From positions 1-51,926 of the IMG/VR virus record IMGVR_UViG_3300031949_000054: a DNA stretch of 51,926 nucleotides; one strand, 5' to 3'. Within the stretch, counting starts at the first letter, position 1; every line of letters begins with the position of its first letter. The translations under genes were made by a program, and so were the position numbers. The stretch comes from a virus. This document shows, in pieces, positions 11,835-33,811 of the stretch. Under the pieces are notes generated by a model, which worked only from the letters and a program-made list of their open reading frames with translations, made no database searches and was not told the origin of the DNA.

Positions 11835-13481
11835 TTACCTCTTGGCTCCGGTGAGCGGCGTTCTGCCGCCCATCACCGCCCGTGGCAATCTTCCGAGGGG
11901 CCGGCGGCGCGCGTTTGCTTCGCGCTGGGCGGCCCATGCCATGGCGTCCGTGATCTCTTTCGGTCCTGCCCACCACGCCATGATAACAGCGTCGGCTTCA
12001 TCTGGTGAGAATCCCAGGCGTTCGACCACGCCTTTCTTCCCGGACTCGCGTTTGGACTTCGCCTCGACTTGGATCCCGCGTGGGGTGACTTCGAAGGTCG
12101 GGGCGCACAGGCCGGCGAGGAGCCGCGGGTCCGGGGGCAGCGCGATCGGGCTCCCGCCGGGTTGGCCTGGATCCAGCGCCTCGCGAAACGCCCAGTACGC
12201 GGCGCTGCGGACGTTGGTGAAAGAGAGCTTTCGGTCGGCGGTGCGCTTGGTCGTCGCCTCGGCGCCCTTGTAGGCGGTGCACTCGACGCGGTTATTCATC
12301 AGGTGCTCGTACATCGGGGCGCCGAACCCGCCGCCCATGTCGATGATCACCATCGCGTCGTCGCGTCGGTTGGCGACGACGAGCGCGGCCGCGTAGGCGC
12401 CGGGTTTGTCCTTGGGGATCTGGTCCCCGGGCGTCTTCACGAGGGGCGCGTACCAGCCGTCGTAGCGGATCGCCTGCACCATCGGGTCCTGGCCGCCGCC
12501 GGAGGCGTCCGCGCCGATCGCGCACATCGGGACGTCCTTCGGGGGCTTGGGCTGCCAGCGCGCTTGGGCCAAGCGCACCCATTCGGTCGGGATGACGAGG
12601 TTCTCCGCGTCGTGCATGCCGACCTTCCAGTTGCCGTACAGGAGCTGGGAGCGCAGCGGCTCGGGCAGCGACTGCAGCGTGGCGCGGTACTCCGGGGTGT
12701 TCCGGTAGGGGTTGTCCTCGAGGCTGGCTGGGATGAACGTGTAGGACTTCGCGGTGTAGGCCTCGCCGTCGATCTTGTATTCCCCTGGGCCTTCGACCCA
12801 GATCGTCTTCCCGGAGCCTGCTGGGCCTGCGTACACGGCCCACAGAAGCTTCCCCGGCTCGGTGGGGAAGAGCGGGTGGTGGTCATCGAGCCACGGGGCG
12901 AACCACTCCACGAGCCACAGGCCCTCGGCTGTGCGCGGGGGGTTGGAGCCGATCACGATCCGCGTGCGCCGGCCGGGCTCCGCGCGCAGCCACGCCTTGA
13001 TCGAGGCGACCTGGACCTCGAGGAATTCACCACCCTCGTCAAAGCCGATAAAGTCGCGCTCGCGGCCGGCGTGGCCGATCCAGCTGTCGGCCTGCGGCAT
13101 GCCCCCGAGTTTCAGGGTCTTGCCGTTCTTCCAGGTCCACTCATGGTCGGTGCCGTTGAAGCTCGCGCGGGCGCCGATGATCTGCTTGCCGTCGCGCTCC
13201 AGGCCGTCGGTCTGCGTGAGCTCGCGCCGGAAGATGATGCCGGTCTGGGCCTCGTTGATGCCGATCCCCAGGGTGAGGTGGCTTTTCCCGCCACCCGCCT
13301 GGCCGCCGTAGAGGAGGACGTCTGCCTCCGTGAGGTAGGCCTCGGTCTGGGGGCCTGGGTTGGGGACCCAGCGCATGGCATGGGTCGGGCCGCGGCGTAG
13401 GTCCTTTGCAATCTTCGCCCTCTGGGCTGGGGTCATCACGCCCACCCGCTCGATCAGCTCATCGAGGGCGCTTACGGCCAT
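11835..13481 (-). CDS. terL: Terminase large subunit
   Basis: 548-aa ORF. Walker A-like LLYGGQAGGGKSH, acidic IGFDEGGEF motif, and a C-terminal nuclease-like region. Confidence 0.85.
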   Translation of the reverse strand: MAVSALDELIERVGVMTPAQRAKIAKDLRRGPTHAMRWVPNPGPQTEAYLTEADVLLYGGQAGGGKSHLTLGIGINEAQTGIIFRRELTQTDGLERDGKQIIGARASFNGTDHEWTWKNGKTLKLGGMPQADSWIGHAGRERDFIGFDEGGEFLEVQVASIKAWLRAEPGRRTRIVIGSNPPRTAEGLWLVEWFAPWLDDHHPLFPTEPGKLLWAVYAGPAGSGKTIWVEGPGEYKIDGEAYTAKSYTFIPASLEDNPYRNTPEYRATLQSLPEPLRSQLLYGNWKVGMHDAENLVIPTEWVRLAQARWQPKPPKDVPMCAIGADASGGGQDPMVQAIRYDGWYAPLVKTPGDQIPKDKPGAYAAALVVANRRDDAMVIIDMGGGFGAPMYEHLMNNRVECTAYKGAEATTKRTADRKLSFTNVRSAAYWAFREALDPGQPGGSPIALPPDPRLLAGLCAPTFEVTPRGIQVEAKSKRESGKKGVVERLGFSPDEADAVIMAWWAGPKEITDAMAWAAQREANARRRPLGRLPRAVMGGRTPLTGAKR

Positions 13482-14552
13482 CTATCGGCGCTTGCGTATG
13501 CGCAGGCGGCCTTTCTTATCCACTTTGACCGTTGCCCGCTCGAGCGTCTTCCACGATTGAGCTGGTAGCTCTGGGTCTGGATACGGATGCGTCGTGGGCG
13601 GCGCGGTTGGGATGGGCCCCTGGCCTGGTCCTGGCGGTGGATCGATCGGCACGGAAAGCGGCGGCTGCACGGGCGGGTCGAGCACGAGCGCCGGCGGGAT
13701 GCTCGACTCCTCGAAGCGGTGCAGTGCCGCCTCGATCGCCACGGCGCGGCCGGCGACCATCGCCGAGTGTGCGATCGCCTCGGTGATCTCAAGTCCCGGG
13801 TCGGGATCGGCGGTCCAGGTGTTGAGGATGTAGTCGAGGTTGTCGATCGCGCCCTTGCAGAACTGCAGCTGCTCGTTGTGCATGGCGACCTGCTGCTGGT
13901 GCATGGCCGAGCGGCTCGCGAGCTCGTTTCTGCGGGTGAGCAGCTTGACGTGCCGAGGGTGGTTCTCGATCTTTCCGTAGGGGGTCGGGGGTTGCAGGAG
14001 GTCGGACTCCAGCGGGAGGACGATCTTGATCCCCAGGGCCGCGGCGATGCCGAGGAAGTTCTGGCAGCCGGGGCGTTGGAAGGCGTACTCGGAGTGCGCG
14101 GCCATGTCGACGCCCCACAGGCCGATCGCCCTGGGGCGCAGCTTGATCGCGAGGGCGAGCATGTAGGCCATGCTCGAGGTCCAGAAGTAAGGGCCGAACT
14201 CCGCCTCCATCTCGGCGAAGGGGTAGACCACGGAGTTCTTGACGCTCGGCACTCGCTCGGACATGTAGACCGGGCCTTCGTGCAGCTCGAGGAAGCGCAC
14301 GTACTCGGGGCTGAACCAGGGCTTGTTGGCGGCGTTGCGCGGGTCCCCGGGTGCGGCGGGCTCCCAGCGGTGGATCTCGAAGAAGACGTCGGAGCGCCCT
14401 GGCGGGATCTCGCCGTACGCGCCGGGTGAGCAGCCCCAGATCGCCCAGGTCGGGTCGGTGTAGGGGGCGAGGCGGACCGAGCTCGGGGCGGACCCGATGA
14501 TCGCGATCTTGTCGAAACCATCGGGCCCGAGCTTCAGCGCGGGTTGCTGCAT
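13482..14552 (-). CDS. Paralog A of a Rossmann-like putative glycosyl/nonulosonate transferase (CstII/GT42- or Maf/DUF115-like; hypothesis) with a coiled-coil and Pro-rich tail
   Basis: 356-aa ORF. KIAIIGSAPSS..WAIWGC..FFEIHRW..WTSSMAYMLALAIKLRPRAIGLWGVDMAAHSEYAF aligns by eye with 25086..25751 and, from memory, with the TSGVYM..AIALGYKEIYLSGIDFY..YAF core of Campylobacter CstII. Confidence 0.5.
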   Translation of the reverse strand: MQQPALKLGPDGFDKIAIIGSAPSSVRLAPYTDPTWAIWGCSPGAYGEIPPGRSDVFFEIHRWEPAAPGDPRNAANKPWFSPEYVRFLELHEGPVYMSERVPSVKNSVVYPFAEMEAEFGPYFWTSSMAYMLALAIKLRPRAIGLWGVDMAAHSEYAFQRPGCQNFLGIAAALGIKIVLPLESDLLQPPTPYGKIENHPRHVKLLTRRNELASRSAMHQQQVAMHNEQLQFCKGAIDNLDYILNTWTADPDPGLEITEAIAHSAMVAGRAVAIEAALHRFEESSIPPALVLDPPVQPPLSVPIDPPPGPGQGPIPTAPPTTHPYPDPELPAQSWKTLERATVKVDKKGRLRIRKRR

Positions 14553-14601: not shown

Positions 14602-15075
14602 TCAGGTCGTCGCGGCGGGCGTGATGGTTGTGCTGCCGTTCAGGTACAGGCCCCACATCGCGGTGGTGAGTCCGATCAGCTGGATCACCGCCCCGGTCAG
14701 GGTCGAGCGGATCACGGTCGCGATGGTGCTGTCCGCGCTCGTCCTGAAGGTCTCTGCGTTCTTCGTCTTCAGGTACTGCGGGGTGTTCGCCGAGGAGAAC
14801 ACGATCGTCTTTTGCACGCCCGGGATCGGGGGCTCGATGATGTATACGCTCGAGGAGCCGGCGGAGGTGCCATTCAGGATGGACACGCCCCAGGCCGGGA
14901 CGTCGGTGCCGGTCGACTCGCCGGTGGTCACGCCCATTCGCAATCCTTCGGGGCCGGCGAGGAGGTCCGCGCCCTTGCTCACGGCGGTGGCGGCGCCGTG
15001 CTGGCCGCTTGAGAGCGGGATCAGGCCGAAGCGGCGCCCGTAGATGCCTGTCAGGATCTGGCTGTTGTAGGACAT
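14602..15075 (-). CDS. Hypothetical Ser/Thr/Gly-rich small protein
   Basis: 157-aa ORF with a GGAGAG ribosome-binding site. Charge-poor, beta-rich composition. Confidence 0.6.
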   Translation of the reverse strand: MSYNSQILTGIYGRRFGLIPLSSGQHGAATAVSKGADLLAGPEGLRMGVTTGESTGTDVPAWGVSILNGTSAGSSSVYIIEPPIPGVQKTIVFSSANTPQYLKTKNAETFRTSADSTIATVIRSTLTGAVIQLIGLTTAMWGLYLNGSTTITPAATT

Positions 15076-15161: not shown

Positions 15162-15551
15162 TTACTTGCGCCATTGCTCCATGATCACGTAGCCGCTCGT
15201 GAAGGCGGCAAACGAGAAGCCGGTCGAGTCGAGGGGCACCTGGAAGGTCTCTGGGTACGGCCCGATCGGGATGTTCACTCCGGAGCTCGCGTGGCTCGTG
15301 CCGCTCGCGGGGACCGCGGCGCTCGTGGACTTCATGTTGGCGCTGAAGAGGTACGTTCCGCCGGCGGTGGTCATCCCGCGCAAGCGCACGATGTGGGCGC
15401 CGGCTGCGCCCGCGTTCGCCATCGCGGTGGATCCTGTGGAGAGCCAATCGGAGGCCTGGGCGCTGGAGCCTCCGGTCATCAGGAACGTGGTGACCTGGTC
15501 CGGGACGAGCGGGTTGCCCTCGGTGGGGTGAAGGGTGCCGAATCGGTTCAT
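15162..15551 (-). CDS. Hypothetical Ser/Thr/Gly/Ala-rich small protein
   Basis: 129-aa ORF with composition similar to 14602..15075. Confidence 0.6.
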   Translation of the reverse strand: MNRFGTLHPTEGNPLVPDQVTTFLMTGGSSAQASDWLSTGSTAMANAGAAGAHIVRLRGMTTAGGTYLFSANMKSTSAAVPASGTSHASSGVNIPIGPYPETFQVPLDSTGFSFAAFTSGYVIMEQWRK

Positions 15552-16216: not shown

Positions 16217-17642
16217 GGGTGGCGGTGCCCTTGGTGGCGTCCTGCCAGCGGCGCACGATCACGTCGGCGTACAGGGGGTCCAACTCGATCGCGTAGCAGG
16301 CGCGCCCGAGCTGTTCGGCCGCCATCAGGGTACTCCCGGAGCCGGCGAAGATGTCGAGTACGATCTCGCCCTCGAGGCTTGAGTTGGCGATCGCGCGGCG
16401 CGCAAGCTCAACAGGTTTCTGGTTGGGATGCAGGGTATTGTCCTTCCCGTAGCCGTTGTCGCGGCTCACCTCCCACAGGTCCTGGGCGCCGCCGCCGGCC
16501 TCGAGCAGAAGCGCTTGGTCTGGGGCCAGGTGTACGTGCCGGATCTTGCGGCCTTTGGGCTGGGTGCTGGTTACGTGGATCTCGCCTTCCTTGGTCGTGA
16601 TCGTCACTCCCGCGCCGATCGTCGTACGAAGGCCTGCGGCGGGGCCATGGGCGCTTACCCGCCACACGGTGGACTGATCCCTCCCTCCGTGCCAGGCGGC
16701 GCGCACGCCTTGCCTGGCAGCGTAGAAGCAGGGCTCATGGGCCCATCGGTAGTCGGCCCACCCCAGCACGATCTGGGGTTTCGCCCAGATGATGTAGGAG
16801 AGCTCCACTAAGCCGGTGTCGCGGAGGGCGGCGCTGTAGTCGTCCCGCGTTGCGCTCGCATGCCACACGTACCAGCCGGCGTCATCGGTGGTGTGCGGGA
16901 GCGCGGCGGCGAAGGCTTTCCGGAGGAGGTCCGCGAGTTGGCCGCGGCGCAGGTCGTCGCCCCGTATCATCTCGAAGTCCCCGCTCCTTGCGACATAGGA
17001 GACGCCGTAGGGCGGGTCGGTGAACACCATGTTCGCCCGACGTCCTAACGTCAGTGCCTCGAGCACGGTCTTCTTGGTTGCGTCCCCGTAGATCAGGCGG
17101 TGCGCGCCCATCAGCCAGATGTCCCCGGGCTGGGAGATCGCCTTTCGCTGCAGCGCTGGGGTTGCGGGCTCCTCCGGGTCCTGGGTCCGGGGTTCCAGGG
17201 CAAAGGCGATCTCGGGGAGGTTAAAGCCGGTCAGCTCGAGATCGAACCCCATGTCCTTCAGGGCCGAGAACTCCGCGGCGAGCAGGTCCTGGTCCCATCC
17301 GGCGTCTTCTGCTGCTCGGTTGTCGGCGAGCAGGTAGGCGCGCTTCTGGGCCGTCGAGAGGCCTGTGAGCTCGATCACGGGTACGCGCTGCATCCCGAGT
17401 TGCTTCGCCGCCTGGAGCCTGCCGTGGCCCGCCAGGATGCCGTTCTTGCCGTCGACCAGGATCGGGTTGGTCCACCCGTGCGCGCGGATCAGTTTGACGA
17501 GCTTGTCGATCTGCGCCGGGGTGTGAGTCCTGGGGTTCTTTGGGTCGGGCTTCAGGTTGCCGACATAGCGGTACTCGATCTTCAGCTGGCCGCCGTGGGC
17601 CTGCTTTTTTATAGCCGACACGTAACCGCCTCCCTGAACCAC
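16149..17642 (-). CDS. ParB-like nuclease domain fused to a beta-class DNA (N6-adenine/N4-cytosine) methyltransferase
   Basis: 497-aa ORF. ParB N-terminal motif (NPRTHTPAQIDKLVKLIRAHGWTNPILVD..GHGRLQAA), motif IV FTDPPYG, and C-terminal motif I LDIFAGSGST. Confidence 0.85.
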   Translation of the reverse strand: MVQGGGYVSAIKKQAHGGQLKIEYRYVGNLKPDPKNPRTHTPAQIDKLVKLIRAHGWTNPILVDGKNGILAGHGRLQAAKQLGMQRVPVIELTGLSTAQKRAYLLADNRAAEDAGWDQDLLAAEFSALKDMGFDLELTGFNLPEIAFALEPRTQDPEEPATPALQRKAISQPGDIWLMGAHRLIYGDATKKTVLEALTLGRRANMVFTDPPYGVSYVARSGDFEMIRGDDLRRGQLADLLRKAFAAALPHTTDDAGWYVWHASATRDDYSAALRDTGLVELSYIIWAKPQIVLGWADYRWAHEPCFYAARQGVRAAWHGGRDQSTVWRVSAHGPAAGLRTTIGAGVTITTKEGEIHVTSTQPKGRKIRHVHLAPDQALLLEAGGGAQDLWEVSRDNGYGKDNTLHPNQKPVELARRAIANSSLEGEIVLDIFAGSGSTLMAAEQLGRACYAIELDPLYADVIVRRWQDATKGTATHAKEKASFDVIAKRRTASKDKR

Positions 17643-17648
17643 TCGTCG

Positions 17649-17915
17649 CTACCGGGGGTCCCCCACGTCGGGGGGCGCAGCAGCCGCAGGCCCAGTGTCG
17701 TCGTCGCGTTGCGAACGAGTGTCCCGAATCAGCGGGTCCGGACCAGCTTTATCGGCAAGTACGCTGCTAACCTGCGGTGCTGCACCATTCTGTTCCCCTG
17801 CACGAGGGGCATGTGAAAAATGCATAGGACAGGAGGAGTCCTCGCAGACCCACAGTGCGCTTCCGCTCCAGTGGCCTATTTCACCCTTGCAGTAGCCCAT
17901 AGCGTTCGTGCTCAT
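17649..17915 (-). CDS. Hypothetical Cys-containing small protein (low-GC insert)
   Basis: 88-aa ORF with AAGGAG 6 nt upstream of the ATG. N-terminus MSTNAMGYCKGEIGHWSGSALWVCEDSSCPMHF. Confidence 0.45.
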   Translation of the reverse strand: MSTNAMGYCKGEIGHWSGSALWVCEDSSCPMHFSHAPRAGEQNGAAPQVSSVLADKAGPDPLIRDTRSQRDDDTGPAAAAPPDVGDPR

Positions 17916-18521
17916 TCATTTCTCCTTCGGTGAGGGAGGGAGCGCGGCACCGTATCGGGCTGGGGTAGCCCCGATGTCCGGTTGAGTGATTGTTACTAGA
18001 CCATCTCGTACCAAACCTTTGAGGGCGCTTCGCACTGGAGTAACCGGGATTCCGGTTGCGTAAGAAATGTCCCGTATCGTGCTGTGTTCGTTCAGCGCCT
18101 CAAGAACTTTTTGCACACGAGCAGAGCGCGTTCGTTTCTGGATTCCTACACGTGGATCAACTTTCGGCCAGGGGAGCAGTTTCTCAACGTCGCCACGGCC
18201 TGCCGCCACATCCAAAGCATCGGATACGTCATCGCTCGTCTCGAAGATGCCGAACATATCTGCCATGCAGCCGATGACTAGGTAGAGTGCAGCGCAACGC
18301 TCCTGCCATGTCCCAATCGTTTCTGGGGCCGTGTGCTCAAACTCAGCGGCATCAGCCTTAACCGGCTGCCCCGCCTCTGCGTGATCCGATAGGGCGCGAA
18401 GGGCTGCAAGAATTGCGTGCTGATCCTCGCTGCCAAGTTCGGTTGATTGGCCGTCTTCATATTGCAGAAACAGAATGCCGCTACCATCGATCTGTTCTAT
18501 TAGTCTCGTCAACTCGCTCAT
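17916..18521 (-). CDS. Hypothetical protein with a C-terminal winged-helix-like domain (low-GC insert)
   Basis: I chose the start at MSELTRL (ATG 18521), which forms an ATGA overlap with the synthase stop. The C-terminus ..VQKVLEALNEHSTIRDISYATGIPVTPVRSALKGLVRDGLV looks MarR/wHTH-like. Confidence 0.6.
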   Translation of the reverse strand: MSELTRLIEQIDGSGILFLQYEDGQSTELGSEDQHAILAALRALSDHAEAGQPVKADAAEFEHTAPETIGTWQERCAALYLVIGCMADMFGIFETSDDVSDALDVAAGRGDVEKLLPWPKVDPRVGIQKRTRSARVQKVLEALNEHSTIRDISYATGIPVTPVRSALKGLVRDGLVTITQPDIGATPARYGAALPPSPKEK

Positions 18522-19546
18522 GGCCTTCCTTTCCTCACGAGTTCCCACGTTAGCGGTTCGCCAGCCCTCACCGCCCGGTATACGCGCATCCCCATGACCA
18601 GAGGCTTGTTCTTCGGCTCCATGCCGTCCCCCGGGCGTAGCGCCCGGACGTTGTGCTCGGTCAGCGGGTCGCCCTCGGCCATGTCGTAGGCCACATGCAG
18701 GGTGCGGCGCAGAGCGAGCATCGGGCGTTCGGCTTCGCTCGGGCCGTAGCTCTCGAATCCGACAGCGTCGATCGCATCGTGCACGGCTTGCACCAGGGTC
18801 TCCATGCCGAGGGGATCAAGCGAGAAGCTCTTGTCCGGGCCGAGCGTCGTAAACTCCCCCATGTGCTTCTCGATCATGTCGGCGCCCATGATCGCGGCGG
18901 CTACAGCGGCGCCTGATCCGGGCGTGTGGTCGGAGTATCCAATTTTGCAGTCGAAATGCTGGCGCATGTTCGCCATCGTGGCGAGATTCACCTCGGCCGC
19001 TGTGGCCGGGTAGACGCTCGAGCACTTGAGCAGCGTGAGGTTGCCCTGCGTTCCGCCGGCGTGGCGATAGGCCTGGACCGCATCGTCGATCTCGGCAAGG
19101 GTGGCCATGCCGGTCGAGATGATGATCGGCTTACCGGTGAGGGTGACGCGGGTGATCAGTTCGAGGTCGAGGATCTCAAAGGAGGCGATCTTGTAGATCG
19201 GGCATCCCAGCCGCTCGAGGAAATCCACGGCTGCGGGTTCGAATGGGGTGCTGAACACAGGGATGCCGACCTTTTCGCCCTCCTTGAAGATCTGCTCATG
19301 CCAGCTCCACGGAAGCGCGCAGCGGTTGTACAGGTCCCAGAGATTCTCCCCCTTCCATGGTCCCTCTGTGAGGGTGTGCTGCACGCTCGGGTGGACCATG
19401 CTCGTGGGCTCGTAGGTCTGCAGTTTGACAGCGTCGCAGCCGGCGCGCTTGGCCGCGCGCACGATCTCCAGGGCGCGTTCCATGTGCTGGCAGTGATTCG
19501 CGCCCATCTCCGCGACAATGAACGGGTACCGCGAGGCGCGCTTCAT
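18518..19546 (-). CDS. pseI: Nonulosonic acid synthase of the NeuB/PseI/LegI family (pseudaminic acid synthase favoured by context)
   Basis: Start trimmed to MKRASRYPFIVAEMGANHCQ (ATG 19546). TIM-barrel NeuB motifs are present, plus a C-terminal SAF-like ..RALRPGDGMEP..G.RVYRAVRAGEPLTWE. Confidence 0.85.
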   Translation of the reverse strand: MKRASRYPFIVAEMGANHCQHMERALEIVRAAKRAGCDAVKLQTYEPTSMVHPSVQHTLTEGPWKGENLWDLYNRCALPWSWHEQIFKEGEKVGIPVFSTPFEPAAVDFLERLGCPIYKIASFEILDLELITRVTLTGKPIIISTGMATLAEIDDAVQAYRHAGGTQGNLTLLKCSSVYPATAAEVNLATMANMRQHFDCKIGYSDHTPGSGAAVAAAIMGADMIEKHMGEFTTLGPDKSFSLDPLGMETLVQAVHDAIDAVGFESYGPSEAERPMLALRRTLHVAYDMAEGDPLTEHNVRALRPGDGMEPKNKPLVMGMRVYRAVRAGEPLTWELVRKGRP

Positions 19547-19760
19547 GACCAAAGGCCGGCACCCGGACCCATAAGCGGGCAGGGTATCCGGGCGCCGGTT
19601 TTCTCTGGCACTACGCTGAATGGGGCTCGGCCACGAGAGCAAGGGGAGTTACCCGCAATTTCCTTCGCGCGGCTCTCTCTCGCAAGAACGGCCCGCGCCC
19701 CATGACTGGCCACGTGCAGATTGCACACGCTCGGCCCCTCGGTGTATTCCTTTTCGATCC

Positions 19761-20294
19761 TCATTGCCGCCCCAGGAGTTCAAGAGTCCGGGCCGCGTCC
19801 TCGAGGGTCGCGGTACTGAAATCGCCACTCGCGGCGGTGCGCCTGAGTTCGGCCGCGAGCGTCGGGATGTTGCGCTTGGCGACCTGGATCGTGCGCGCGA
19901 GTTCACCCGCCTGGAAGTCCTGCTCGTTGTTCTCGATCGGCTTCACGACGTGCTTGGTGCCCTGCGCGACGAGGCTCACGATCACGAAGGGTCGCGAGGG
20001 TTCGGCTGGGCTCGCCGGTACCGCGCGGCGGGTCCCCACGGCCGGGATGCCCGGGGTGGCGGGTCTGCCCTCCGGGCGGTAGACCATCGCCGCTGGGGTC
20101 ACCTTCTGGTAGGCCATGCACTGGTCAAACGCACTCAGGTCCTCCTCTCGAATCAGCACGGTCATCTCGGGGTTCTGATGGCGGGCCTTCCAGAGCAGGA
20201 GCTGCAGCACCCTGTTGGGGTCGGCCGCTGCGAAGGCGTCGAGGACGTCGACGGGCGGCGGCGTGGCTTTCGGTTTTGCTTTCGCTTTCGTCAT
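19761..20294 (-). CDS. Hypothetical protein
   Basis: 177-aa ORF. Its ATG overlaps the TGA of the GNAT gene (ATGA). Confidence 0.6.
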   Translation of the reverse strand: MTKAKAKPKATPPPVDVLDAFAAADPNRVLQLLLWKARHQNPEMTVLIREEDLSAFDQCMAYQKVTPAAMVYRPEGRPATPGIPAVGTRRAVPASPAEPSRPFVIVSLVAQGTKHVVKPIENNEQDFQAGELARTIQVAKRNIPTLAAELRRTAASGDFSTATLEDAARTLELLGRQ

Positions 20295-20752
20295 GGTCTT
20301 TCTCCTGGTGGCAGCTGGTAGGTGTGCTGAATAACGCGAGCTCCCAGCTTCAAAAAGAGCGCGTGCGAGCGGGTGTTCCCTGGGGCTACGTTCGCGAGCA
20401 GCGGTCCTGGGTGCCTCTCTCGCAGGAGAGTAACCGCCCGGAAGGCGTAGCCCTTGCGCTGGTGGGTGGCAAAGATCGCGACCGCTACCTCGTTCGCGCG
20501 GGTGAGCGCGACCGAGCCGACCCGTTCCAGTCTCTGAAGCTCGAAGAAGGCTGCTTCGTATGTTTCCGGCCTGTCCTCGATCAGGTACCAGGCTTTGTAG
20601 GGGCGGGAGGCGACGAATGCCTTGTGGGCCTCGTAGCTTGGCATCTGCCGGTGTGAGATGTTCGCCTCGGGTGGGCGCTCCTGCAGCAGCTCGTAAAGGA
20701 TCCGCCCGGCTAAGGATGGACCCACGTCGTAGACGTCTGTCAGTCTCAGCAA
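20291..20752 (-). CDS. GNAT-family N-acetyltransferase, PseH-like
   Basis: I chose the TTG start at 20752, which lies 6 nt after AAGGAG. LLRLTDV..ILYELLQERPPEANISHRQMPSYEAHKAFV..YKAWYLIE resembles the PseH-type N-terminus. The upstream part of the track ORF 20291..21034 is Arg-rich noise. Confidence 0.6.
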   Translation of the reverse strand: MLRLTDVYDVGPSLAGRILYELLQERPPEANISHRQMPSYEAHKAFVASRPYKAWYLIEDRPETYEAAFFELQRLERVGSVALTRANEVAVAIFATHQRKGYAFRAVTLLRERHPGPLLANVAPGNTRSHALFLKLGARVIQHTYQLPPGERP

Positions 20753-20934
20753 TTCGCGCTCCTTTTCCACGGGCCTGCTATCTGCCAGCACGGGCTGCAG
20801 GCCCAGATGACGCCGCGGCCGTAGCAGGCGGGTTGTCCACAGGCTCCGCATGGCCTGGGGATAACTTTCCCGTCCGGGGTGAAGCCGCCCATGTTGATCT
20901 CCTTCGCGTTGGCCGTGCCCGGGTGGTGCATCAT
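20746..20934 (-). CDS. Small Cys-rich (zinc-ribbon-like) protein
   Basis: 62 codons from MMHHPG.. (ATG 20934, ATGA overlap with the HisF-like stop). Contains CGACGQPACYG..WACSPCW. Confidence 0.4.
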   Translation of the reverse strand: MMHHPGTANAKEINMGGFTPDGKVIPRPCGACGQPACYGRGVIWACSPCWQIAGPWKRSANC

Positions 20935-21851
20935 TGGTGTCGCCCGATGAGCCCGAGAATCTCCTCCTCGGATACCTCTCCGCGCCGGTCCCACAGCATG
21001 TCGAAGACCTCCCTCGGTACCGGGGGGGCACCATGCTTCTGGGCTTCCTCCCAGACCATTTCCTTCAGGCGAGGGTCGCTCAGATCGCCGGTGATTTCCA
21101 TGGGTTCTGGGAGCCTGGTCTCGATCCCGTGTTCGGCGAGATAACGTGCGGCTTCCAGCGGGGTCTGATCGGTGAACTGGAACATGGCGCCAGCGGCTAC
21201 TGCGTCTGCGCCGGCCTCAATCGCCTCGAGCAGATGCTGGTACGTGCCGGCGCCGCCGTGAGCGATCACCGGGATGCTTACATAGTTGCTCACTGCTCGG
21301 ATTATCGGCAAATCGTAGCCTTCCATCGTGCCCTCGCGGTCGATCGATGTCAGCAGAATTTCGCCTGCGCCGTGTTGTTCCAAATACATAGCCCAACGGA
21401 CCGGCCTGCGGCGGCGCGCATATTCAGGGACGCCCTTGAACACGACAAAACCACCACGCACATCGGCGGCGGCGACAAGCGCTTGGCTGCCGACTCTATC
21501 CGCAGCCTCGCGTAAAAGATTAGGGACATGAAGAGTTGCAGCACCGATCACCACCTTGTCGGCGCCGGCGCGGAGCAGCGCTCGCACGTCGTCGACTGAC
21601 CGGATTCCTCCGCCGACAGCGAGCGGCATGAAACAGACTTCAGCGAGCTCGGCGACCAGATCCAGGTCCGGACCACGGCCTTCTGCGGTGGCGGCGACGT
21701 CCAGCAGCATGAGCTCGTCCACGCCGCGCGTCTGGTGGATGCGCACCGCTTGGGCGGCAAGGCCGACCGTTCTCCAGGAATCAAAGCGCGCGCCCTTCAC
21801 CATCTGCCGCCCTCGGCACAGGATCGTCGGGATGATGCGCTTGGAGAGCAT
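20931..21851 (-). CDS. HisF/WbuZ-like imidazole-glycerol-phosphate-synthase cyclase-subunit homolog (glycosyl amidation partner) with a ~55-aa C-terminal extension
   Basis: Start trimmed to MLSKRIIPTILCRG (ATG 21851). HisF motifs ..DELMLLDV.. and ..PLAVGGGIRSVDDVRALLRAGADKVVIG.. are present. Confidence 0.85.
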   Translation of the reverse strand: MLSKRIIPTILCRGRQMVKGARFDSWRTVGLAAQAVRIHQTRGVDELMLLDVAATAEGRGPDLDLVAELAEVCFMPLAVGGGIRSVDDVRALLRAGADKVVIGAATLHVPNLLREAADRVGSQALVAAADVRGGFVVFKGVPEYARRRRPVRWAMYLEQHGAGEILLTSIDREGTMEGYDLPIIRAVSNYVSIPVIAHGGAGTYQHLLEAIEAGADAVAAGAMFQFTDQTPLEAARYLAEHGIETRLPEPMEITGDLSDPRLKEMVWEEAQKHGAPPVPREVFDMLWDRRGEVSEEEILGLIGRHQ

Positions 21852-22093
21852 CAGCCTCTGCCTTGCGCTTGGATCACTTTCAGGATGCAGTCCGAAAGCG
21901 CCCAGGCTGGGCGCTTTCCCCACCCACGCTCTAGGCTTGGATGGTGCTGCGCTTCGTAATAATCTTGGTGAAATGGCCACCACCTTCTACGAATGCGGAA
22001 TAGCCGCATGTTGGCGTACTTCACGATCCTGTTCGCGTCGCCCTCGCGAGCCTCGTCACGCAGGTCAAGTTCCCGGCGGGTCTCGCGCGTCAC
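21851..22093 (-). CDS. Hypothetical Arg/Trp-rich 80-aa protein occupying the position where a HisH/WbuY glutaminase would be expected
   Basis: The GTG start forms a GTGA overlap with the amidotransferase stop. The stop forms a TGATG overlap with the HisF-like start. No glutaminase motif is present. Confidence 0.4.
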   Translation of the reverse strand: MTRETRRELDLRDEAREGDANRIVKYANMRLFRIRRRWWPFHQDYYEAQHHPSLERGWGKRPAWALSDCILKVIQAQGRG

Positions 22094-23196
22094 GCGAACT
22101 CCTTCAAAATGGGGCGCTTGTCGTAGGGGTGTGCGAAAAGATCCTTGTTCGTGAAGCGGGCGAGGGTATCCATCAGTTCGCCCTCGGACATCCGGATCTG
22201 CTCGAGCACCCTGGCGAGCGGGACGCCGGCATAGACATCTGGGAAGAGCCCGTCGATCTCGCGCACGTTCCGCATGGCCTCATCCCGTGAGAGCTTATTG
22301 TGGCGGATGTCCACTGAGAGTTGCGCGGCGGCCCGCCCGTAGCCGTACTTGCGGTACATCGCATGGTCGTGCAGGCCCGTCATCGCGTTGTCAAGGTTCT
22401 CCGCCGGCCACCAGTTCGCCGGGGTTGGGAGGTGCTGGCGCATGCCGGCGTCGGCCGCGGCGCGGGCGTTGCGCTCGGCGTCCCAGCGGAAGTACTGTCC
22501 CATGAAGTGGGCCTCGATCCCCGCCGCGGCGACAAAGCGCTCGTCAAGGGGGCGGTAAGGCTGCAGGTCGCGCTCGGAGAGGCTTCGTTGTCCGACCAGG
22601 TCCTGTGCTCGCAGGCCGAGAAAGCCGCCAAACTCCGTGACCCAGCGCCGCGTCATCGCGCGCGCGTCGGTCGTGCCCTGGGGGCCTCCGTAGGCTTCTT
22701 GCGGGTTTTCGCCGTACAAAACCAGTGGAATAATCATGTTTCGCGCCACCGCCCAGGGGGTGTTGAAGATGGTGGCGTGCTCGGGCCAGCTGATATCGCC
22801 CACGAGCTCCAGGCCCAGGCGGTTTAGCTTCGAGCGCACCTTCCGGTTCGGGGTGACCTCGATCGTGTCGGCGTAGCGGGCGAGGTTGTCGATGTTGAAG
22901 CGCCCGATCGGCGTCAGCATGCACGTGGAGGCAGTTACCACCAGGGGCCGGTAGCCAAGCTCGATCACCTTCAGCACCTGCCAGTGGCTGTCCTTGCCGC
23001 CTGAGCTCGCCACGATGCAGTCGTAGCCGCTCGCTGGGTTGTGCTTCTCGCGCATCAGGGTGTGGAACTCCTCCTCGCGCGCGGCCCAGTCGACGCGGCC
23101 CCTATTGGCGAAAGAGCGGCAGGCCGAGCACACCCCGTCCTCGAATGGCGTGTCGGGGCGGGCCGTAGGTATCACACAATTGCGGCAGCGGTTCAT
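22090..23196 (-). CDS. N-acetyl sugar amidotransferase (PseA/WbuX/WbpG type, PP-loop ATPase)
   Basis: 368-aa ORF. N-terminal CRNC..CSAC zinc-ribbon-like pairs, followed by the PP-loop IVASSGGKDS. Confidence 0.85.
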   Translation of the reverse strand: MNRCRNCVIPTARPDTPFEDGVCSACRSFANRGRVDWAAREEEFHTLMREKHNPASGYDCIVASSGGKDSHWQVLKVIELGYRPLVVTASTCMLTPIGRFNIDNLARYADTIEVTPNRKVRSKLNRLGLELVGDISWPEHATIFNTPWAVARNMIIPLVLYGENPQEAYGGPQGTTDARAMTRRWVTEFGGFLGLRAQDLVGQRSLSERDLQPYRPLDERFVAAAGIEAHFMGQYFRWDAERNARAAADAGMRQHLPTPANWWPAENLDNAMTGLHDHAMYRKYGYGRAAAQLSVDIRHNKLSRDEAMRNVREIDGLFPDVYAGVPLARVLEQIRMSEGELMDTLARFTNKDLFAHPYDKRPILKEFA

Positions 23197-23278: not shown

Positions 23279-23845
23279 TCATGGCTTCTCCATCAACCAG
23301 TACGTGCAGCGGTCAAAGCCGTTCGCCTCGCCGGTGTGCAGGATCGTCAGCCCGAGCGCCTCATACAGCTTGCCGTACGGGCGCTTCCACAGGCGGTTCT
23401 CGTAGCCGCGGTACTCGATCATCTGCTCAACATCGGAGGCGTATTCGATCGCGACGATCCATCGTGAGCTCGCGTCGACGATCTCCCCCATAAACGCGGG
23501 AAGGTTCTCCGGGGCTACGTGGATGAGGACGCCCGCGGTGAACACGAGGTCGTACCGCCCTGGGGGCTCATCAAGCCTGCCGGTTGAAACGCCGACCAGG
23601 CCGGCGGCACGCGCCTGCTCTGCCGCCCTCGGGTTGATGTCGCACCCGTGGAGCATCGCCTTTGAAATCTCCGCGATCGCCGAGAGGTTCCAGCCCGCGT
23701 TGCACCCGACCTCGTAGACGCTCCGGGCTTCGGTGAAGCGCATGATGTCGGTCCAGAACGGGATGCGCGCGCGCCAGTCCACCCGGTTGCGCGCGGTGTA
23801 GGCGTTCCCGAACTCCCCCGCCCAGAACTCCTCCTGGGGGATCAT
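23279..23845 (-). CDS. SAM-dependent methyltransferase resembling the pseudaminic-acid-biosynthesis-associated methylase
   Basis: 188-aa ORF. Motifs seen: EEFWAGEFGNAYTARN, EVGCNAGWNL (motif I), GVLIHVAP, and IEY..IEYRGYENRLWKRPYG. Confidence 0.8.
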   Translation of the reverse strand: MIPQEEFWAGEFGNAYTARNRVDWRARIPFWTDIMRFTEARSVYEVGCNAGWNLSAIAEISKAMLHGCDINPRAAEQARAAGLVGVSTGRLDEPPGRYDLVFTAGVLIHVAPENLPAFMGEIVDASSRWIVAIEYASDVEQMIEYRGYENRLWKRPYGKLYEALGLTILHTGEANGFDRCTYWLMEKP

Positions 23846-24414
23846 CGCATTCCTTTCTCAGAACGCCGCCGCGCCTGTTGCGAGACGGACATCTTCGCTC
23901 TTGCTGAGGCTGGGAGCCTAGTACCAAGTTTAGCTGCGGCCATGCGCTTCCGGGCCTCCACGGAGAAGGTGCGCCCTTTCTGGGCCTTGGACATCCGCTC
24001 ACGAGATTCAGGCGTGACGACCCGACGCTTGAGAGCCAATTTGATCCGTTCTCTGTGCACATCAGACAGCCGTCGACCGCGTAGGGATTCCGATATCTTC
24101 GCCGCGACTGTCGGCAAGAATGGTACTGGCTTCTTTCCTCCTGGGCTTATGTTGTAGCCACGTGGGTCTAGTGTGCAAAACACAGCGATGGCGCGCGTTT
24201 CTGTCTCATCGAGATCGACTGGCTGTACGACGGCAAGCACCGTAAGGCGCGGCACCCCGTACTTTCGCCAAGCCATATAGACGGCCCCTTTCGTGCTTGC
24301 GTCGCTGGCCTTGTGGTGACGACGAAACCGTTGAAGCGCTGTCCCGACAGTCGCGCCGATATATGACTTTCCCGATGCAAAGTCTAGGCGGTACAGTTCA
24401 CCCATTTTCCCCAT
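23842..24414 (-). CDS. GIY-YIG homing endonuclease with NUMOD3-like repeats
   Basis: 190-aa ORF. LYRL..KSYIGAT (GIY-YIG), RFRRH, ETETRAI and GYNISPGG. Three C-terminal S/ARxRMSxAQKG-type repeats. GC looks lower than in the neighbouring genes. Confidence 0.85.
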   Translation of the reverse strand: MGKMGELYRLDFASGKSYIGATVGTALQRFRRHHKASDASTKGAVYMAWRKYGVPRLTVLAVVQPVDLDETETRAIAVFCTLDPRGYNISPGGKKPVPFLPTVAAKISESLRGRRLSDVHRERIKLALKRRVVTPESRERMSKAQKGRTFSVEARKRMAAAKLGTRLPASARAKMSVSQQARRRSEKGMR

Positions 24415-25120
24415 CCCTAAGCTTTATCGCAGCGTAGAGCAGTTCCGCCATCTCCCAATCGCTTACGGTGTTGATGTCCTGGCAGCGGTAGCGTGGGATC
24501 GGCACGCCGAGCGAGGCGGGACTGAAGATCGGCGCATCGCGCACGAACGACGCCGTTCTCCCCCAGTACCACTGCCCGGCGTCGTGGTAGTAGGTCGGGA
24601 GATCCTGGCTTCTTGCGTTCGCGATGGCCTCGGTAAGCGAGCCGGTGACGACCGCCCCATCTGGGCCGAGCTCGAAGGCCCGCTGCAGTTCGGCGTCGTA
24701 CGTGGTGACGGAGAAGGCGTAGACCGGGTCCCAGTCGGTGCGGGTGAGCGCCCGGAAGCCTGCCTGCAGGTCCGCGGGGGTCATCATCGGGGCGGTCGCG
24801 TAGATGCAGCAGGCGAGGTCGTAGGCGAAGTGCGGGCCGGCTGGCTTGTGGATCGCGAGCAGCGCCTCCCGCATCACCGCCTGGGTGCCGGTGTGGTCAT
24901 CGGCGAGCTCCGCGGGCCGACGGTGGACCGAGGCGCCGTAGCGCGCCGCGACCTCGGCGATCTCATCGGAGTCTGTCGAGACGAGGATGAGATCGAACAG
25001 GGCGCTCGCTTTCGCCGCCTCGATCGAGTAGGCGATGATCGGCCGACCGTGGAAGGGCTGGATGTTCTTGCCGGGGATGCGCTTGCTACCGCCCCGGGCG
25101 GGGATGATTGCGATTTTCAT
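24398..25120 (-). CDS. pseF: CMP-nonulosonate synthetase (PseF/NeuA-type cytidylyltransferase)
   Basis: 240-aa ORF. MKIAIIPARGGSKRIPGKNI and ..RRPAELADDHTGT.., as in acylneuraminate/pseudaminate cytidylyltransferases. Confidence 0.85.
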   Translation of the reverse strand: MKIAIIPARGGSKRIPGKNIQPFHGRPIIAYSIEAAKASALFDLILVSTDSDEIAEVAARYGASVHRRPAELADDHTGTQAVMREALLAIHKPAGPHFAYDLACCIYATAPMMTPADLQAGFRALTRTDWDPVYAFSVTTYDAELQRAFELGPDGAVVTGSLTEAIANARSQDLPTYYHDAGQWYWGRTASFVRDAPIFSPASLGVPIPRYRCQDINTVSDWEMAELLYAAIKLRDGENG

Positions 25121-25751
25121 GGTGGTCCTCTATCAGCTTGACGTCGTCGAAGCCATAGACCGTGTTGCTTTTCAGCAGGTGGTACTGGTGAAAGATGTCA
25201 CAGTCTTCGGTGGTTGTCACTCGGATTCCGCGGCCCTCGGCCACGCCGCACCAGTACTCGAGGCACGCCCTGGCGCTGATGGGCTCGGCGCGCCAGCTGT
25301 CCAGGGCAAGGCCGATCCCGTGTAAGGCGATCTCTGCCGCGCCCTCCAGGATTGCGTATGCGACCAGCATGTCGAAACTGCCGGCGTGGTAGCGGCCTCC
25401 GCGTGGGGTGAGGCGGAGGAGGTCATTCACCGGGAATAGGACCTCGTTCTCGAGGAGCCCGTGCCAGGTGTCGACCACGTACACCGGGATCTTGGGGTTC
25501 GCCTTGGAGAAGGCGGTGTCCCAGACGATGTATTCGTAGCAGTCTCGGTTCAGGTGCGCGAAGCGGTGCAGGTTGAACATCCTCGCCCAGCGGATGGGCT
25601 TCCAGGGCGGCTGGCGCGCGTCTGGGCGGATGGCGTTCAGGCCCCAGATCTCCCATCCCGGGCTCTCGTGGCGGCCGGTGAAGTACTGCTCCTTCGCGGC
25701 GCCGCCGATGATGGCGACCTTCAGGGCGGGGTTCTTCTTTCTTCCGAACAT
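25086..25751 (-). CDS. Paralog B of the Rossmann-like putative nonulosonate transferase (hypothesis)
   Basis: Real start taken at MFGRKKNPALKVAIIGGAAKE (ATG 25751). The upstream 142 codons of the track ORF are Arg/Pro noise. WEIWGLN..FNLHRF..GSFDMLVAYAILEGAAEIALHGIGLA aligns with 13482..14552. Confidence 0.55.
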   Translation of the reverse strand: MFGRKKNPALKVAIIGGAAKEQYFTGRHESPGWEIWGLNAIRPDARQPPWKPIRWARMFNLHRFAHLNRDCYEYIVWDTAFSKANPKIPVYVVDTWHGLLENEVLFPVNDLLRLTPRGGRYHAGSFDMLVAYAILEGAAEIALHGIGLALDSWRAEPISARACLEYWCGVAEGRGIRVTTTEDCDIFHQYHLLKSNTVYGFDDVKLIEDHHENRNHPRPGR

Positions 25752-26527: not shown

Positions 26528-27745
26528 TCACGTTTCAATCACCGGACGGTAATCCCGCCAGTCTTTGTAGAGGAGATTACGCCCTCCTGGGGTTGTCCTC
26601 CAAGTAGAGGCGACTGCTGCTTGCGGATTGCGACCAGCCTCGCCCGCGTACTGCTCTGGGTTGATGGGCAGCCAGTATTTCCGGAAAGTGCCGTCTGGTT
26701 CCGGGGATCGGTTGGTGACGCAGATCCTAGCGATCGGCCGGCCAACGTTCAGGTTTTCCATGTAGAGGTCCCCGAAGAGAGGATCGCTTGCCACGGGCTT
26801 CATACCGCTGTCGAGGATGTACCGGGCCTCGCCGTAGCGCTCGATCATGATCCGGCGGACCTCGGCGTTCTTCTCGTCTGTCATATGCTTGAGCGTGATC
26901 CACTCCGGCTTGACAACCACGAAGGCTGGCACGAGAACTCCGTGCCAGAAGTAGAGGTTTTCGATGTCGGACTCCAGGGCTGCGGATCGGTCGTTGTGCA
27001 GCCTTCGGCCGTTCGGCGTTTGTTCGACGTGGACCGTAGGCTTCGCGACCCAGTAGAGGGTGTCCTCGGTCCAGTGCAATATCCAAGCGCCAGCAAGGAA
27101 GGCCTCGAGTAGCGGGTCGGCCCAAGCCCTGACTTGCGGCGGGGGGGTTCCGAATGCCGTGGTGACGATCCAGGATAGGTCGAATCTCCACCAACCCCAG
27201 CCGTATGCCTGGATGCACCACGCCGCGAAGCGGTGAAGTGAAGTAAATGCGGCGCGGACGTCGCCGTCGGCGAGGGCGTCGCGGGCGGCGCGGGCGTCGC
27301 GGGCGTCGCGGGCGGCGAGGGCGTCGCGGGCGGCGCGGGCGGCGAGGGCGGCGAGGGCGTCGAGGGCGTCGCGGGCGTCGAGGGCGTCGCGGGCGTCGCG
27401 GGCGTCGAGGGCGTCGCGGGCGTCGCGGGCGGCGAGGGCGTCGCGGGCGGCGAGGGCGTCGAACTCGCGCGCGGCGAGGGCGGCGAGGGCGGCGAGGGCG
27501 TCGCGGGCGGCGAGGGCGGCGATTGATGGATAGGGTTTCACGATGTCATCGAGCACTTGGTTAACATATTTTTTGAGCGATGGCTCGGTTTCCAGGTCCC
27601 AGTCGATCGGAAGCCGCTTGATCGTCCGGTTTATGTTGAGCGCGCGAAGATAGGTCCCCAGGTGCTGCTCGACGAGGACAGCATCGAGCACACCCGGGTA
27701 ATCACACGCGGCGTCGTAGCGCTTCCGAAGTTCAGTCTGCGACAC
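26528..27745 (-). CDS. Repeat-containing protein: an Ala-rich (A-[L/R]-[A/D]) tripeptide array followed by a conserved bacterial-type domain of unknown function
   Basis: GTG start at 27745 overlaps the end of 27732..28073. The C-terminal ..GRRLHNDRSAALESDIENLYFWHGVLVP..EKNAEVRRIMIERYG.. matches a DUF I recall (possibly DUF6745), which is often preceded by ARD/AWD-type repeats. Confidence 0.65.
   Translation of the reverse strand: MSQTELRKRYDAACDYPGVLDAVLVEQHLGTYLRALNINRTIKRLPIDWDLETEPSLKKYVNQVLDDIVKPYPSIAALAARDALAALAALAAREFDALAARDALAARDARDALDARDARDALDARDALDALAALAARAARDALAARDARDARAARDALADGDVRAAFTSLHRFAAWCIQAYGWGWWRFDLSWIVTTAFGTPPPQVRAWADPLLEAFLAGAWILHWTEDTLYWVAKPTVHVEQTPNGRRLHNDRSAALESDIENLYFWHGVLVPAFVVVKPEWITLKHMTDEKNAEVRRIMIERYGEARYILDSGMKPVASDPLFGDLYMENLNVGRPIARICVTNRSPEPDGTFRKYWLPINPEQYAGEAGRNPQAAVASTWRTTPGGRNLLYKDWRDYRPVIET
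27269..27517. repeat. In-frame tandem array: 26 units of 9 bp (G[G/T]CG[A/C]GGGC on the plus strand) plus one 15-bp variant unit
   Basis: Parsed unit by unit: 21 units (27269-27457), then gtcgaactcgcgcgc (27458-27472), then 5 units (27473-27517). Seven of the nine positions are invariant in all units. Confidence 0.95.
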
Positions 27746-28073
27746 GGCGAACCTCCGGACCGAAGTCCTCGACCTGGAAGGCTTGGCGGTAGATGCCCTT
27801 ATCAAGGACGATCGCGGCGTGCTCCTCGTGTTTGAGTGTGACTCGCTCGAGCACCTGCAGGTAGCGCTCGGCGCCGGCGTCCCAGTAGCGGACCTTGTGC
27901 TGCTCCTTCTTCGGGACATCAATGCGGTGAGCGTGTCCGGTGACCTCGCCGTAGGCGAGGACGATGCCTCGGGCTTCCGGTTTGATTTCTTTTGCGCCCT
28001 CTGGGATGGTGGCGAGGGTGGTAAGTACGAGGGCGACGTCGCCCTGCCGATACGTCGTTGTGGCTCGTTTCAT
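27732..28073 (-). CDS. Conserved phage hypothetical protein (small beta-barrel type)
   Basis: 113-aa ORF. RQGDVALV..VLAYGEVTGHAHRI..LKHEEHAAIVL is a pattern I recall from many phage ORFs of unknown function. Confidence 0.65.
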   Translation of the reverse strand: MKRATTTYRQGDVALVLTTLATIPEGAKEIKPEARGIVLAYGEVTGHAHRIDVPKKEQHKVRYWDAGAERYLQVLERVTLKHEEHAAIVLDKGIYRQAFQVEDFGPEVRRVAD

Positions 28074-33547: not shown

Positions 33548-33811
33548 ATGACTACCGCCTATCCCCTGCAGTGGCCGCCCGGCTGGCCGCGCACGCCCTC
33601 GGATAAGCGGGAGCGCTCGCGCTTTGACACCAGTGTGTCGAAGGCGCTTGGCTTTCTCCACGAGGAGGTGCGGCGGCTCGGGGCGAAGTCCCTCGTCATC
33701 TCGAGCAACTATACCCTCGGGCCTGCTCCGGAGGATTCCGGGGTGTGTGCCTATTTCGAGTTGGGAATTATATACTTGACTCCCACAGCGGAATCAGTGG
33801 GTTATGAGTAG
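33548..33811 (+). pseudogene. 5' fragment of a J-domain protein gene, interrupted by the methyltransferase cassette
   Basis: MTTAYPLQWPPGWPRT..SGVCAYFE is followed by 16 element-encoded codons and then TAG. The frame matches the 3' fragment once the element and one TSD copy are removed. Confidence 0.7.
33763..33788. repeat. Left terminal inverted repeat GGGAATTATATACTTGACTCCCACAG
   Basis: Read directly. Its partner is at 34895-34920. Confidence 0.9.

Follow-up and report, generated by a model that had tools for sequence, protein, structure and literature searches.

The virus genome IMGVR_UViG_3300031949_000054 from the IMG/VR collection, analyzed here over its whole length of 51,926 nucleotides (the window), is a near-complete phage genome of 51.9 kb with 65% G+C, and a public contig of 51,940 bp carries its proteins as well. 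On its minus strand lie two open reading frames (ORFs), paralog A (13482-14552) and paralog B (25086-25751), which an earlier inspection of the sequence (the original prediction) had proposed as candidate nonulosonate transferases with a core resembling that of CstII, the Campylobacter sialyltransferase of family GT42. Third-codon-position G+C (GC3) is high in both ORFs (0.86 for B and 0.89 for A), which matches real genes of this genome. The coordinates and length given for B (221 amino acids [aa]) were correct, as was its overlap with the 5' end of the gene for PseF, the cytidylyltransferase that makes cytidine monophosphate (CMP)-pseudaminic acid; the last 35 nucleotides of B overlap the start of that gene. 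PseF is followed on the same strand by a NUMOD3 endonuclease-like gene, a methylase, WbuX, a WbuZ/HisF-like protein, a GNAT acetyltransferase, a 177-aa protein, and PseI (Table 1). A ends one base ahead of the gene for the large terminase subunit (TerL), so that the two abut. With moderate confidence, we regard A and B as CMP-nonulosonate-dependent glycosyltransferases that form a new phage-specific family within the fold group of CstII and Maf.

As judged by sequence comparison, A and B are remote homologs and true paralogs, which bears out the original prediction that B aligns with the N-terminal ~200 aa of A. One colinear BLASTP alignment joins residues 11-218 of B to residues 15-200 of A (24% identity, E = 8e-5). 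When the two families were compared as profiles, each from a 42-sequence alignment, they matched over 174 columns with 98.5% probability (E = 3.6e-15). All of the blocks that had been aligned by eye fall among the best-conserved columns of both families: K(V/I)AIIG, W(E/A)IWG, F..HR(F/W), PVY, the helix-strand block, and, lastly, G(I)xV. B has 175 metagenomic homologs and A has 1,244, none of them annotated. Beyond residue 198, A continues with a long coiled-coil-like helix (aa 199-245), a disordered Pro-rich region, and an end rich in Lys and Arg. This C terminus (13482-13520) carries the tail KKGRLRIRKRR, and close homologs are likewise basic there (e.g., KAKRRR and KARKRRK); DNA binding, capsid targeting, and contact with the terminase are roles that it may have.

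We built AlphaFold2 models of A and B with the family alignments and compared them with PDB, and A also with BFVD, using Foldseek. The B model had a predicted local distance difference test score (pLDDT) of 87.5 and a predicted template modeling score (pTM) of 0.84. For A, the overall pLDDT was 81.6, with most of the ~195 N-terminal residues above 90; this domain is followed by a helix of 47 residues and then by the disordered, Pro-rich, K/R-terminated tail, and a second globular domain is absent. CstII was the top PDB match of both models with a probability of 1.0 (for B, E = 7.8e-4 and template modeling score [TM] of 0.48-0.51; for A, E = 6.1e-4), and both models thereby show the single-Rossmann fold of sialyltransferases, a GT-A variant. 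At the level of modeled structure, the CstII-like core is thus supported, and neither paralog appears to have a fold foreign to glycosyltransferases. With B as the query, ranks 1-5, 8, 10-12, and 18-21 were GT42 or GT29 sialyltransferases, the top matches being CstII, ST8SiaIII, a P. multocida GT42 sialyltransferase, ST6GALNAC2, and Cst-I, while other, generic Rossmann proteins had a TM of ≤0.32. With A as the query, CstII was followed by SteA (probability, 0.99) and thiamin pyrophosphokinase (TPK; probability, 0.99; root mean square deviation, 4.2), and the viral structures of BFVD included a match to a phage protein named "MptE-like" (DUF115; probability, 0.94). Maf proteins have a catalytic domain (PF01973) whose structure resembles that of Cst-II (PMC11339370), and PF01973 also matched some GT42 proteins in our search. 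The CstII (GT42), Maf-DUF115, and TPK families are one fold group.

Adjacency to CMP-sugar genes, noted in the original prediction for the window, extends to relatives, where A and B are again tightly linked to CMP-pseudaminate genes. We examined the context of A in 80 IMG/VR loci with an A homolog (41-87% identity), counting homologs of PseI, PseF, WbuX, or WbuZ as nonulosonate genes. At least two such genes lay upstream in 23 of the 25 loci having at least 8 kb of upstream flank; one of the other two loci had nonulosonate genes downstream, and one had none. TerL was downstream of A on the same strand in nearly all loci that extend far enough (76/77), and a homolog of s157, the Ser/Thr/Gly-rich protein encoded next to A, was directly upstream in 45 of 76. 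B is rarer than A. Most relatives that carry A have a p128 homolog followed by PseF without B between them, and each of nine close B homologs (9/9) sits between these two genes, directly upstream of PseF. Other phage lineages (L004, L098, L100, L101, L104, and L119) likewise have diverged pairs of A-like and B-like genes, accompanied by NeuB or CTP_transf_3 genes.

The domain is also found fused to a cytidylyltransferase. Protein P0501 (492 aa; L121, 805-2283) consists of an N-terminal CTP_transf_3 domain (3.9e-27), a Pro/Thr-rich linker, and a C-terminal A-like domain, and a second, nonidentical fusion of the same kind is encoded on a different contig (P0502, 492 aa; L123, 100-1578). Such a fusion accounted for 1 of the 138 superfamily representatives scanned. 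The joining of a donor-making enzyme to an A-like domain is the strongest single argument that this domain consumes a CMP-sugar. Another protein, P0448 (504 aa; L122, 4894-6408), combines an A-like domain with a weak PhyH-like 2-oxoglutarate (2OG) oxygenase N terminus (E = 1.4e-3, below cutoff), for which there was no sequence match in PDB.

A, B, and their relatives make up a superfamily that is large, phage borne, and previously undescribed. The merged profile, run in a complete HMMER scan, matched 5,151 clusters (50% identity) with an E value of ≤1e-3; at ≤1e-30 the number was 1,291. Bacterial and archaeal genomes, covering 185,579 species, yielded one match, on a 4.3-kb contig of a metagenome-assembled genome that resembles phage. 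The sole matching record in the phage collection was the complete 41-kb genome of Microcystis phage Mvi-Yong1342-1 (PP496355.1), whose A/B-like gene (L124, 34781-35584) precedes the small terminase subunit (TerS) and then TerL. It is labeled "type 11 methyltransferase," which looks like a misannotation.

Relatives occur in at least five types of morphogenesis module, where their neighbors are genes for terminase, portal, protease, capsid, or head completion. On L119, for example, TerL (Terminase_3) is followed by a B-like gene, an SPP1-type portal, a sugar cluster (PseB-like, GNAT, cytidylyltransferase, methylase, and HisF genes), and MuF. The superfamily gene stands beside an S78 prohead protease on L003 and L118, the P0448 gene is flanked by an HK97-type capsid gene on one side and head-tail connector genes on the other, and the fusion gene on L123 is ahead of Phage_HCP and then an HK97-gp10-like gene. 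Because this head-module position recurs in several lineages, a virion head protein is favored as the acceptor. The 75-kb contig L118 holds three paralogs within its structural module (9986-10633, 17375-18301, and 18612-19349), the B-like one being immediately preceded by a B12/radical-SAM gene.

Conservation points to a candidate active center. Residues invariant in both families (B numbering) are Trp36, His62, Pro107, Ala133, Gly145, Glu156, Ala171, and Tyr199, and those nearly so are Gly16, Phe59, Arg161, and Gly175. When the comparison is widened to 138 superfamily representatives, invariance is limited to three residues: His61, Glu155, and Tyr192 (A numbering; His62, Glu156, and Tyr199 in B). 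In the predicted secondary structure, the Gly-rich loop follows strand 1, His61 comes after strand 3 and two residues past the position paired with CstII Asn51, and Glu155 begins the helix after the GVD strand. By this secondary structure, the three invariant residues, Arg160/161, and the Gly-rich loop would lie at the C termini of strands and the N termini of helices, where this fold binds nucleotide. Inteins typically occupy functionally critical sites. Two A homologs, P0204 (L080, 563 aa) and P0382 (550 aa), have an insertion of ~250 aa with the intein hallmarks Cys1 ... His-Asn/Ser+1, although only P0204 matched the Pfam Intein_splicing family, and weakly (3.6e-4). Both insertions sit right after Glu155-Tyr/Trp156, ahead of QRPGCQHF, and we count this exact position as support for a functional center there.

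We propose that A and B would act as metal-independent, cytoplasmic glycosyltransferases that move a CMP-activated derivative of pseudaminic acid to a hydroxyl acceptor. The donor would come from the neighboring PseI, PseF, WbuX, WbuZ, and methylase genes, and the catalytic center would probably be formed by His61, Glu155, and Tyr192 (A numbering), with Arg160/161 and the Gly-rich loop contributing. A, which is kept next to TerL in nearly all relatives and is nearly always accompanied by the sugar cluster, would be the core enzyme. B would be an accessory second copy, translationally coupled to PseF, that probably serves a second acceptor site or a second sugar. A virion acceptor is plausible, and a head protein would be the most likely one. 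Fold, gene linkage, and the cytidylyltransferase fusion all speak for the transferases of the original prediction, whereas sequence membership in GT42 or DUF115 does not, and the activity itself is deduced from the former; "candidate nonulosonate transferase" is a reasonable name for A and B. Far more tentatively, the essentially phage-only superfamily as a whole, with more than 5,000 clusters, might consist of new CMP-nonulosonate glycosyltransferases that use a His-Glu-Tyr center instead of the His188 and lid of CstII and coat phage heads with pseudaminic-acid-type sugars, a generalization about which we are doubtful. Besides the head-module position, it would draw on the late-pathway sugar genes that many of these phages have themselves.

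A number of observations weigh against the transferase assignment. Neither A nor B matched any Pfam, PHROG, or NCBIfam entry, even at E ≤10, and PF06002 (GT42) and PF01973 (DUF115) were matched by neither paralog nor by 42 A-family members in Pfam at that threshold; PF01973 was also unmatched among the 138 superfamily representatives (E ≤0.001). At the sequence level, membership in GT42 or DUF115 therefore fails. Family profiles compared with PDB sequences returned nothing for B and only coiled-coil noise for A (residues 198-261). In hhalign comparisons with a GT42 profile of 78 sequences, the B, A, and merged profiles reached a probability of only 38-46% (P = 2-3e-4) over 134-168 colinear columns. 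These alignments pair KIAIIGSAPS with KVIIAGNGPS and TSS-helix-GLWGVD with TSG-helix-LSGID, and they pair the invariant Asn39 and Asn60 of B with Asn31 and Asn51 of CstII. Shuffling the columns of the GT42 profile 150 times gave a score of 12.5 ± 2.2, compared with 33.5 for the real profile, but when blocks of 12 columns were kept intact, 3 of 150 shuffles attained the real score, which indicates that most of the GT42 signal comes from one helix-strand block. The similarity is above chance and, as far as sequence can tell, supports a shared fold group and not family membership.

The CstII strings cited in the original prediction, ITSGVYMCAVAIALGYKEIYLSGIDFYQNGSSYAF and IIAGNGPS, are correct; both occur in the CstII sequence that we used, and residues 1-259 of that sequence show 100% identity to PDB 1ro7_A. 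The likeness drawn there between IIGSAPS and IIAGNGPS is seen in A, where hhalign pairs GSAPS with GNGPS, but not in B, which has GGAAK in place of GxxPS and also lacks the Asp of the GxD motif. Conversely, A keeps GSAPS but has Ser42/Pro43 and Glu59 at the positions of CstII Asn31 and Asn51, and B has GGAAK yet both Asn residues. CstII uses His188 as a general base together with a flexible lid formed by residues ~155-188 (PMC4202792), and these have no clear counterpart in A or B. In both models the helix comes directly after the GVD strand, so the lid segment is absent, and alternative alignments set His188 opposite differing residues. Structurally, the TM to CstII is moderate, about 0.5 or lower, and SteA and TPK match A as well as CstII does, which means that fold alone cannot tell a transferase from a pyrophosphokinase. 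As to context, the remote members on L105-L117 have no nonulosonate genes nearby, and no homolog of PseI, PseF, or WbuX accompanies the A/B-like gene in the complete genome of the Microcystis phage. A literature search with incomplete journal coverage turned up neither this family nor phage virions modified with nonulosonates.

A serious alternative, although one that we consider rather unlikely, is that A and/or B put phage-modified pseudaminic acid not on the virion but on host flagellin, pilin, lipopolysaccharide, or capsule, which could block superinfection or change the receptor during infection. CstII acts on lipooligosaccharide (PMC4202792) and Maf on flagellin (PMC11339370), and there are known cases of phage-encoded enzymes altering the nonulosonate glycans of their hosts (PMC12053666 and PMC6586298). 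PseB, PseC, and PseG were not found among the window ORFs scanned, implying a host that already makes pseudaminate. Yet the near absence of the family from bacterial genomes argues against a lysogenic-conversion gene of prophages, and late placement in the head modules of several lineages fits a virion substrate better than early host takeover. We find it less likely, and on balance improbable, that A and B catalyze some other reaction or none, whether as a TPK/MptE-like pyrophosphokinase, a noncatalytic SteA-like protein, or an assembly or packaging factor, including A as a terminase accessory. B speaks against a pyrophosphokinase, since its structural neighbors are sialyltransferases, even though SteA and TPK (both at a probability of 0.99) score like CstII for A; the substrate-binding C-terminal domain of TPK is absent from both paralogs. 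A packaging role would suit the location of A just upstream of TerL, its long helix and basic C-terminal tail, and the fact that no TerS is recognizable in the window, where a candidate ORF (15707-16216) could not be confirmed. However, TerS of the Microcystis phage has its own annotated gene, which stands between the A-like gene and TerL, and B-like genes also occur after TerL or beside protease and capsid genes. Some relatives do lack nearby nonulosonate genes, but CMP-sugar genes are very strongly linked to the family, and the cytidylyltransferase fusion adds to this. The arrangement in the Microcystis phage also counts against A being TerS itself, a candidate that we rejected: A had no TerS match in Pfam or PHROG, showed no similarity to BPP-1 TerS, and has an enzyme-like, CstII-like predicted fold.

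DNA hypermodification, in which A and/or B would decorate a hydroxymethylated base of phage DNA with a nonulosonate at about the stage of packaging, seems very improbable to us. Phage glycosyltransferases can put a related sugar, CMP-activated 3-deoxy-D-manno-octulosonate (Kdo), on 5-hydroxymethylcytosine, and their genes are sometimes near the terminase (bioRxiv 10.1101/2023.12.21.572611), a precedent that recalls the position of A beside TerL and its K/R-rich tail. The Kdo enzyme, however, is of the GT-B type and does not share the fold of A and B (bioRxiv 10.1101/2023.12.21.572611). Among the larger window ORFs scanned, there was no thymidylate-synthase-like hydroxymethylase, C5-methyltransferase, or TET/JBP-type oxygenase, and the only DNA methylases detected were two of the N6/N4 type. 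Fusion of one relative, P0448, to a PhyH-like 2OG oxygenase would fit base modification, but that match is below threshold and the gene lies between capsid and connector genes.

Among the closest known counterparts of A and B are CstII and Cst-I. CstII is the best structural match of both paralogs, with which it shares the single Rossmann-type domain. In the profile alignments the motifs run in colinear order, with a Gly-rich loop behind strand 1, in B an Asn after strands 2 and 3, and TSS/TSG-helix-strand-G(V/I)D, and the donor of CstII is a CMP-activated nine-carbon sugar, matching PseF next to B. In contrast to those enzymes, A and B have no PF06002 match (with a profile probability of ~40%), have His61, Glu155, and Tyr192 as invariants, are 25-40% shorter in the catalytic part, are phage encoded, and lie in head modules, and their donor would be a pseudaminate derivative and not N-acetylneuraminic acid (Neu5Ac). 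Maf proteins (PF01973) O-glycosylate proteins in the cytoplasm with CMP-Pse or CMP-Leg, the CMP-activated pseudaminic and legionaminic acids, as donor and have a CstII-like catalytic domain (PMC11339370). The phage "MptE-like" protein is a structural neighbor of A, and several paralogs per genome are typical of maf genes; up to three occur in this superfamily. The three-domain architecture of Maf is absent, however: B, with 221 aa, consists of one domain, and A has only a helix and a disordered tail beside its catalytic domain in place of the large N- and C-terminal domains. Nor is there an association with flagellin or flagellar glycosylation islands, as every context was a phage contig. TPK, MptE, and SteA have a similar Rossmann core (for A, probability of 0.87-0.99 and TMt of 0.42-0.44), but they are not among the top matches of B. 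Their second domain, which in the two-domain plan of TPK/MptE binds the substrate at the C terminus, is absent from A and B, and the gene context is CMP-sugar synthesis and head assembly, not cofactor synthesis. For phage enzymes that glycosylate capsid proteins there is a precedent in Che8-like mycobacteriophages of cluster F (mentioned in PMC11256854). Those enzymes appear to belong to different gene families, and nonulosonic acid was unmentioned in the literature found.

Should the proposal be right, many uncultured phages would spend 6-7 kb of a genome of ~50 kb on modified pseudaminic acid and attach it with a minimal transferase of their own, the capsid being the most plausible target. 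Sialic-acid-like sugars on virions could alter adsorption, stability, binding to mucus or biofilms, and immune recognition. Within the CstII/Maf fold group, no smaller members than A and B would then be known, and their catalytic set would differ, which could interest those who engineer glycans with pseudaminic and legionaminic acids. More than 5,000 clusters that are now "hypothetical" or, in one cultured phage, "type 11 methyltransferase" also acquire a name and a function that can be tested.

Table 1. Features of the window, with supporting matches (E values unless stated otherwise)
Feature	Position	Strand	Evidence or remarks
Paralog A	13482..14552	-	ORF, 356 aa; N-terminal CstII/DUF115-like domain, aa ~13-198
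Paralog B	25086..25751	-	ORF, ATG start, 221 aa; single CstII/DUF115-like Rossmann domain
PseF, CMP-pseudaminic acid synthetase (cytidylyltransferase)	24398..25120	-	TIGR03584 1.5e-81, above cutoff; PF02348 2.5e-27
NUMOD3 endonuclease-like gene inside sugar cluster	23842..24414	-	PF07460 4.7e-5; GC3 0.60
Pseudaminic-acid-biosynthesis-associated methylase	23279..23845	-	TIGR03587 1.2e-36, above cutoff
WbuX-type N-acetyl sugar amidotransferase (acetamidino modification)	22090..23196	-	TIGR03573 2.7e-72, above cutoff
WbuZ/HisF-like glycosyl-amidation protein	20931..21983	-	PF00977 2.7e-56; TIGR03572 6.2e-72, below equivalog cutoff
Weak GNAT acetyltransferase	20291..21034	-	PF13302 and PF00583 ~1e-3, below cutoffs; conserved in related clusters
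Conserved 177-aa protein	19761..20294	-	No Pfam/PHROG match; homologs in same place in many loci
PseI, pseudaminic acid synthase	18518..19642	-	TIGR03586 3.4e-109, above cutoff; PF03102 7.1e-77
210-aa protein next to PseI	17916-18548	-	Weak MarR-like match; GC3 0.54
TerL, directly downstream of A	11835..13481	-	phrog_979 8e-38; tblastn to BPP-1 and AP1 TerL
s157, Ser/Thr/Gly-rich, directly upstream of A	14602..15075	-	No family/PDB match; GC3 0.92
s129, 129-aa Ser/Thr/Gly-rich protein near A	15162..15551	-	No family or PDB match
LPD38 protein	44588-51355	-	
N6/N4 methylase	16149-17642	-	
N6/N4 methylase	33804-34907	+	
DUF5131 protein	35344-36255	+	

Neither PseB, PseC, and PseG nor a HisH-type partner was detected among the window ORFs scanned, and the same ORFs yielded no other glycosyltransferases. 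Lacking these three synthesis enzymes, the phage supplies late and tailoring reactions as well as activation and must depend on its host for the early part of the pathway, and in this respect the self-contained glycosylation system envisaged in the original prediction is not what the window encodes. Within the sugar cluster, the true start of the WbuZ/HisF-like gene is probably internal (near 21851), PseI likely starts at Met33 (near 19546), and the GNAT protein, whose ORF start is also probably internal, may have the role of PseH.

The Ser/Thr/Gly-rich proteins s157 and s129, just upstream of A, have a GC3 of 0.90-0.92. They may be structural proteins or acceptors, and the link of s157 to A is one of position only; when we looked at both proteins in these roles, there were no family or structure matches. 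Compositional outliers in the window are the NUMOD3 gene (GC3 of 0.60) and the ORF at 17916-18548 on the minus strand (0.54), compared with 0.83-0.92 for their neighbors. An HNH endonuclease gene fills the slot on L002 that is equivalent to that of the NUMOD3 gene, and from these two cases mobile endonucleases seem to target this cluster.

Elsewhere in the window, the protein with the LPD38 "large polyvalent protein" domain is 2,255 aa long, and one of the two N6/N4 DNA methylases is fused to a ParB N-terminal domain; a DUF5131 protein is also present. A DUF6745 protein (26528-27922, minus strand; 1.3e-22) contains central low-complexity repeats of the (A-L/R-D-A) type, and the strand opposite this repeat run shows an artifactual RRG-repeat ORF (27247-27564).

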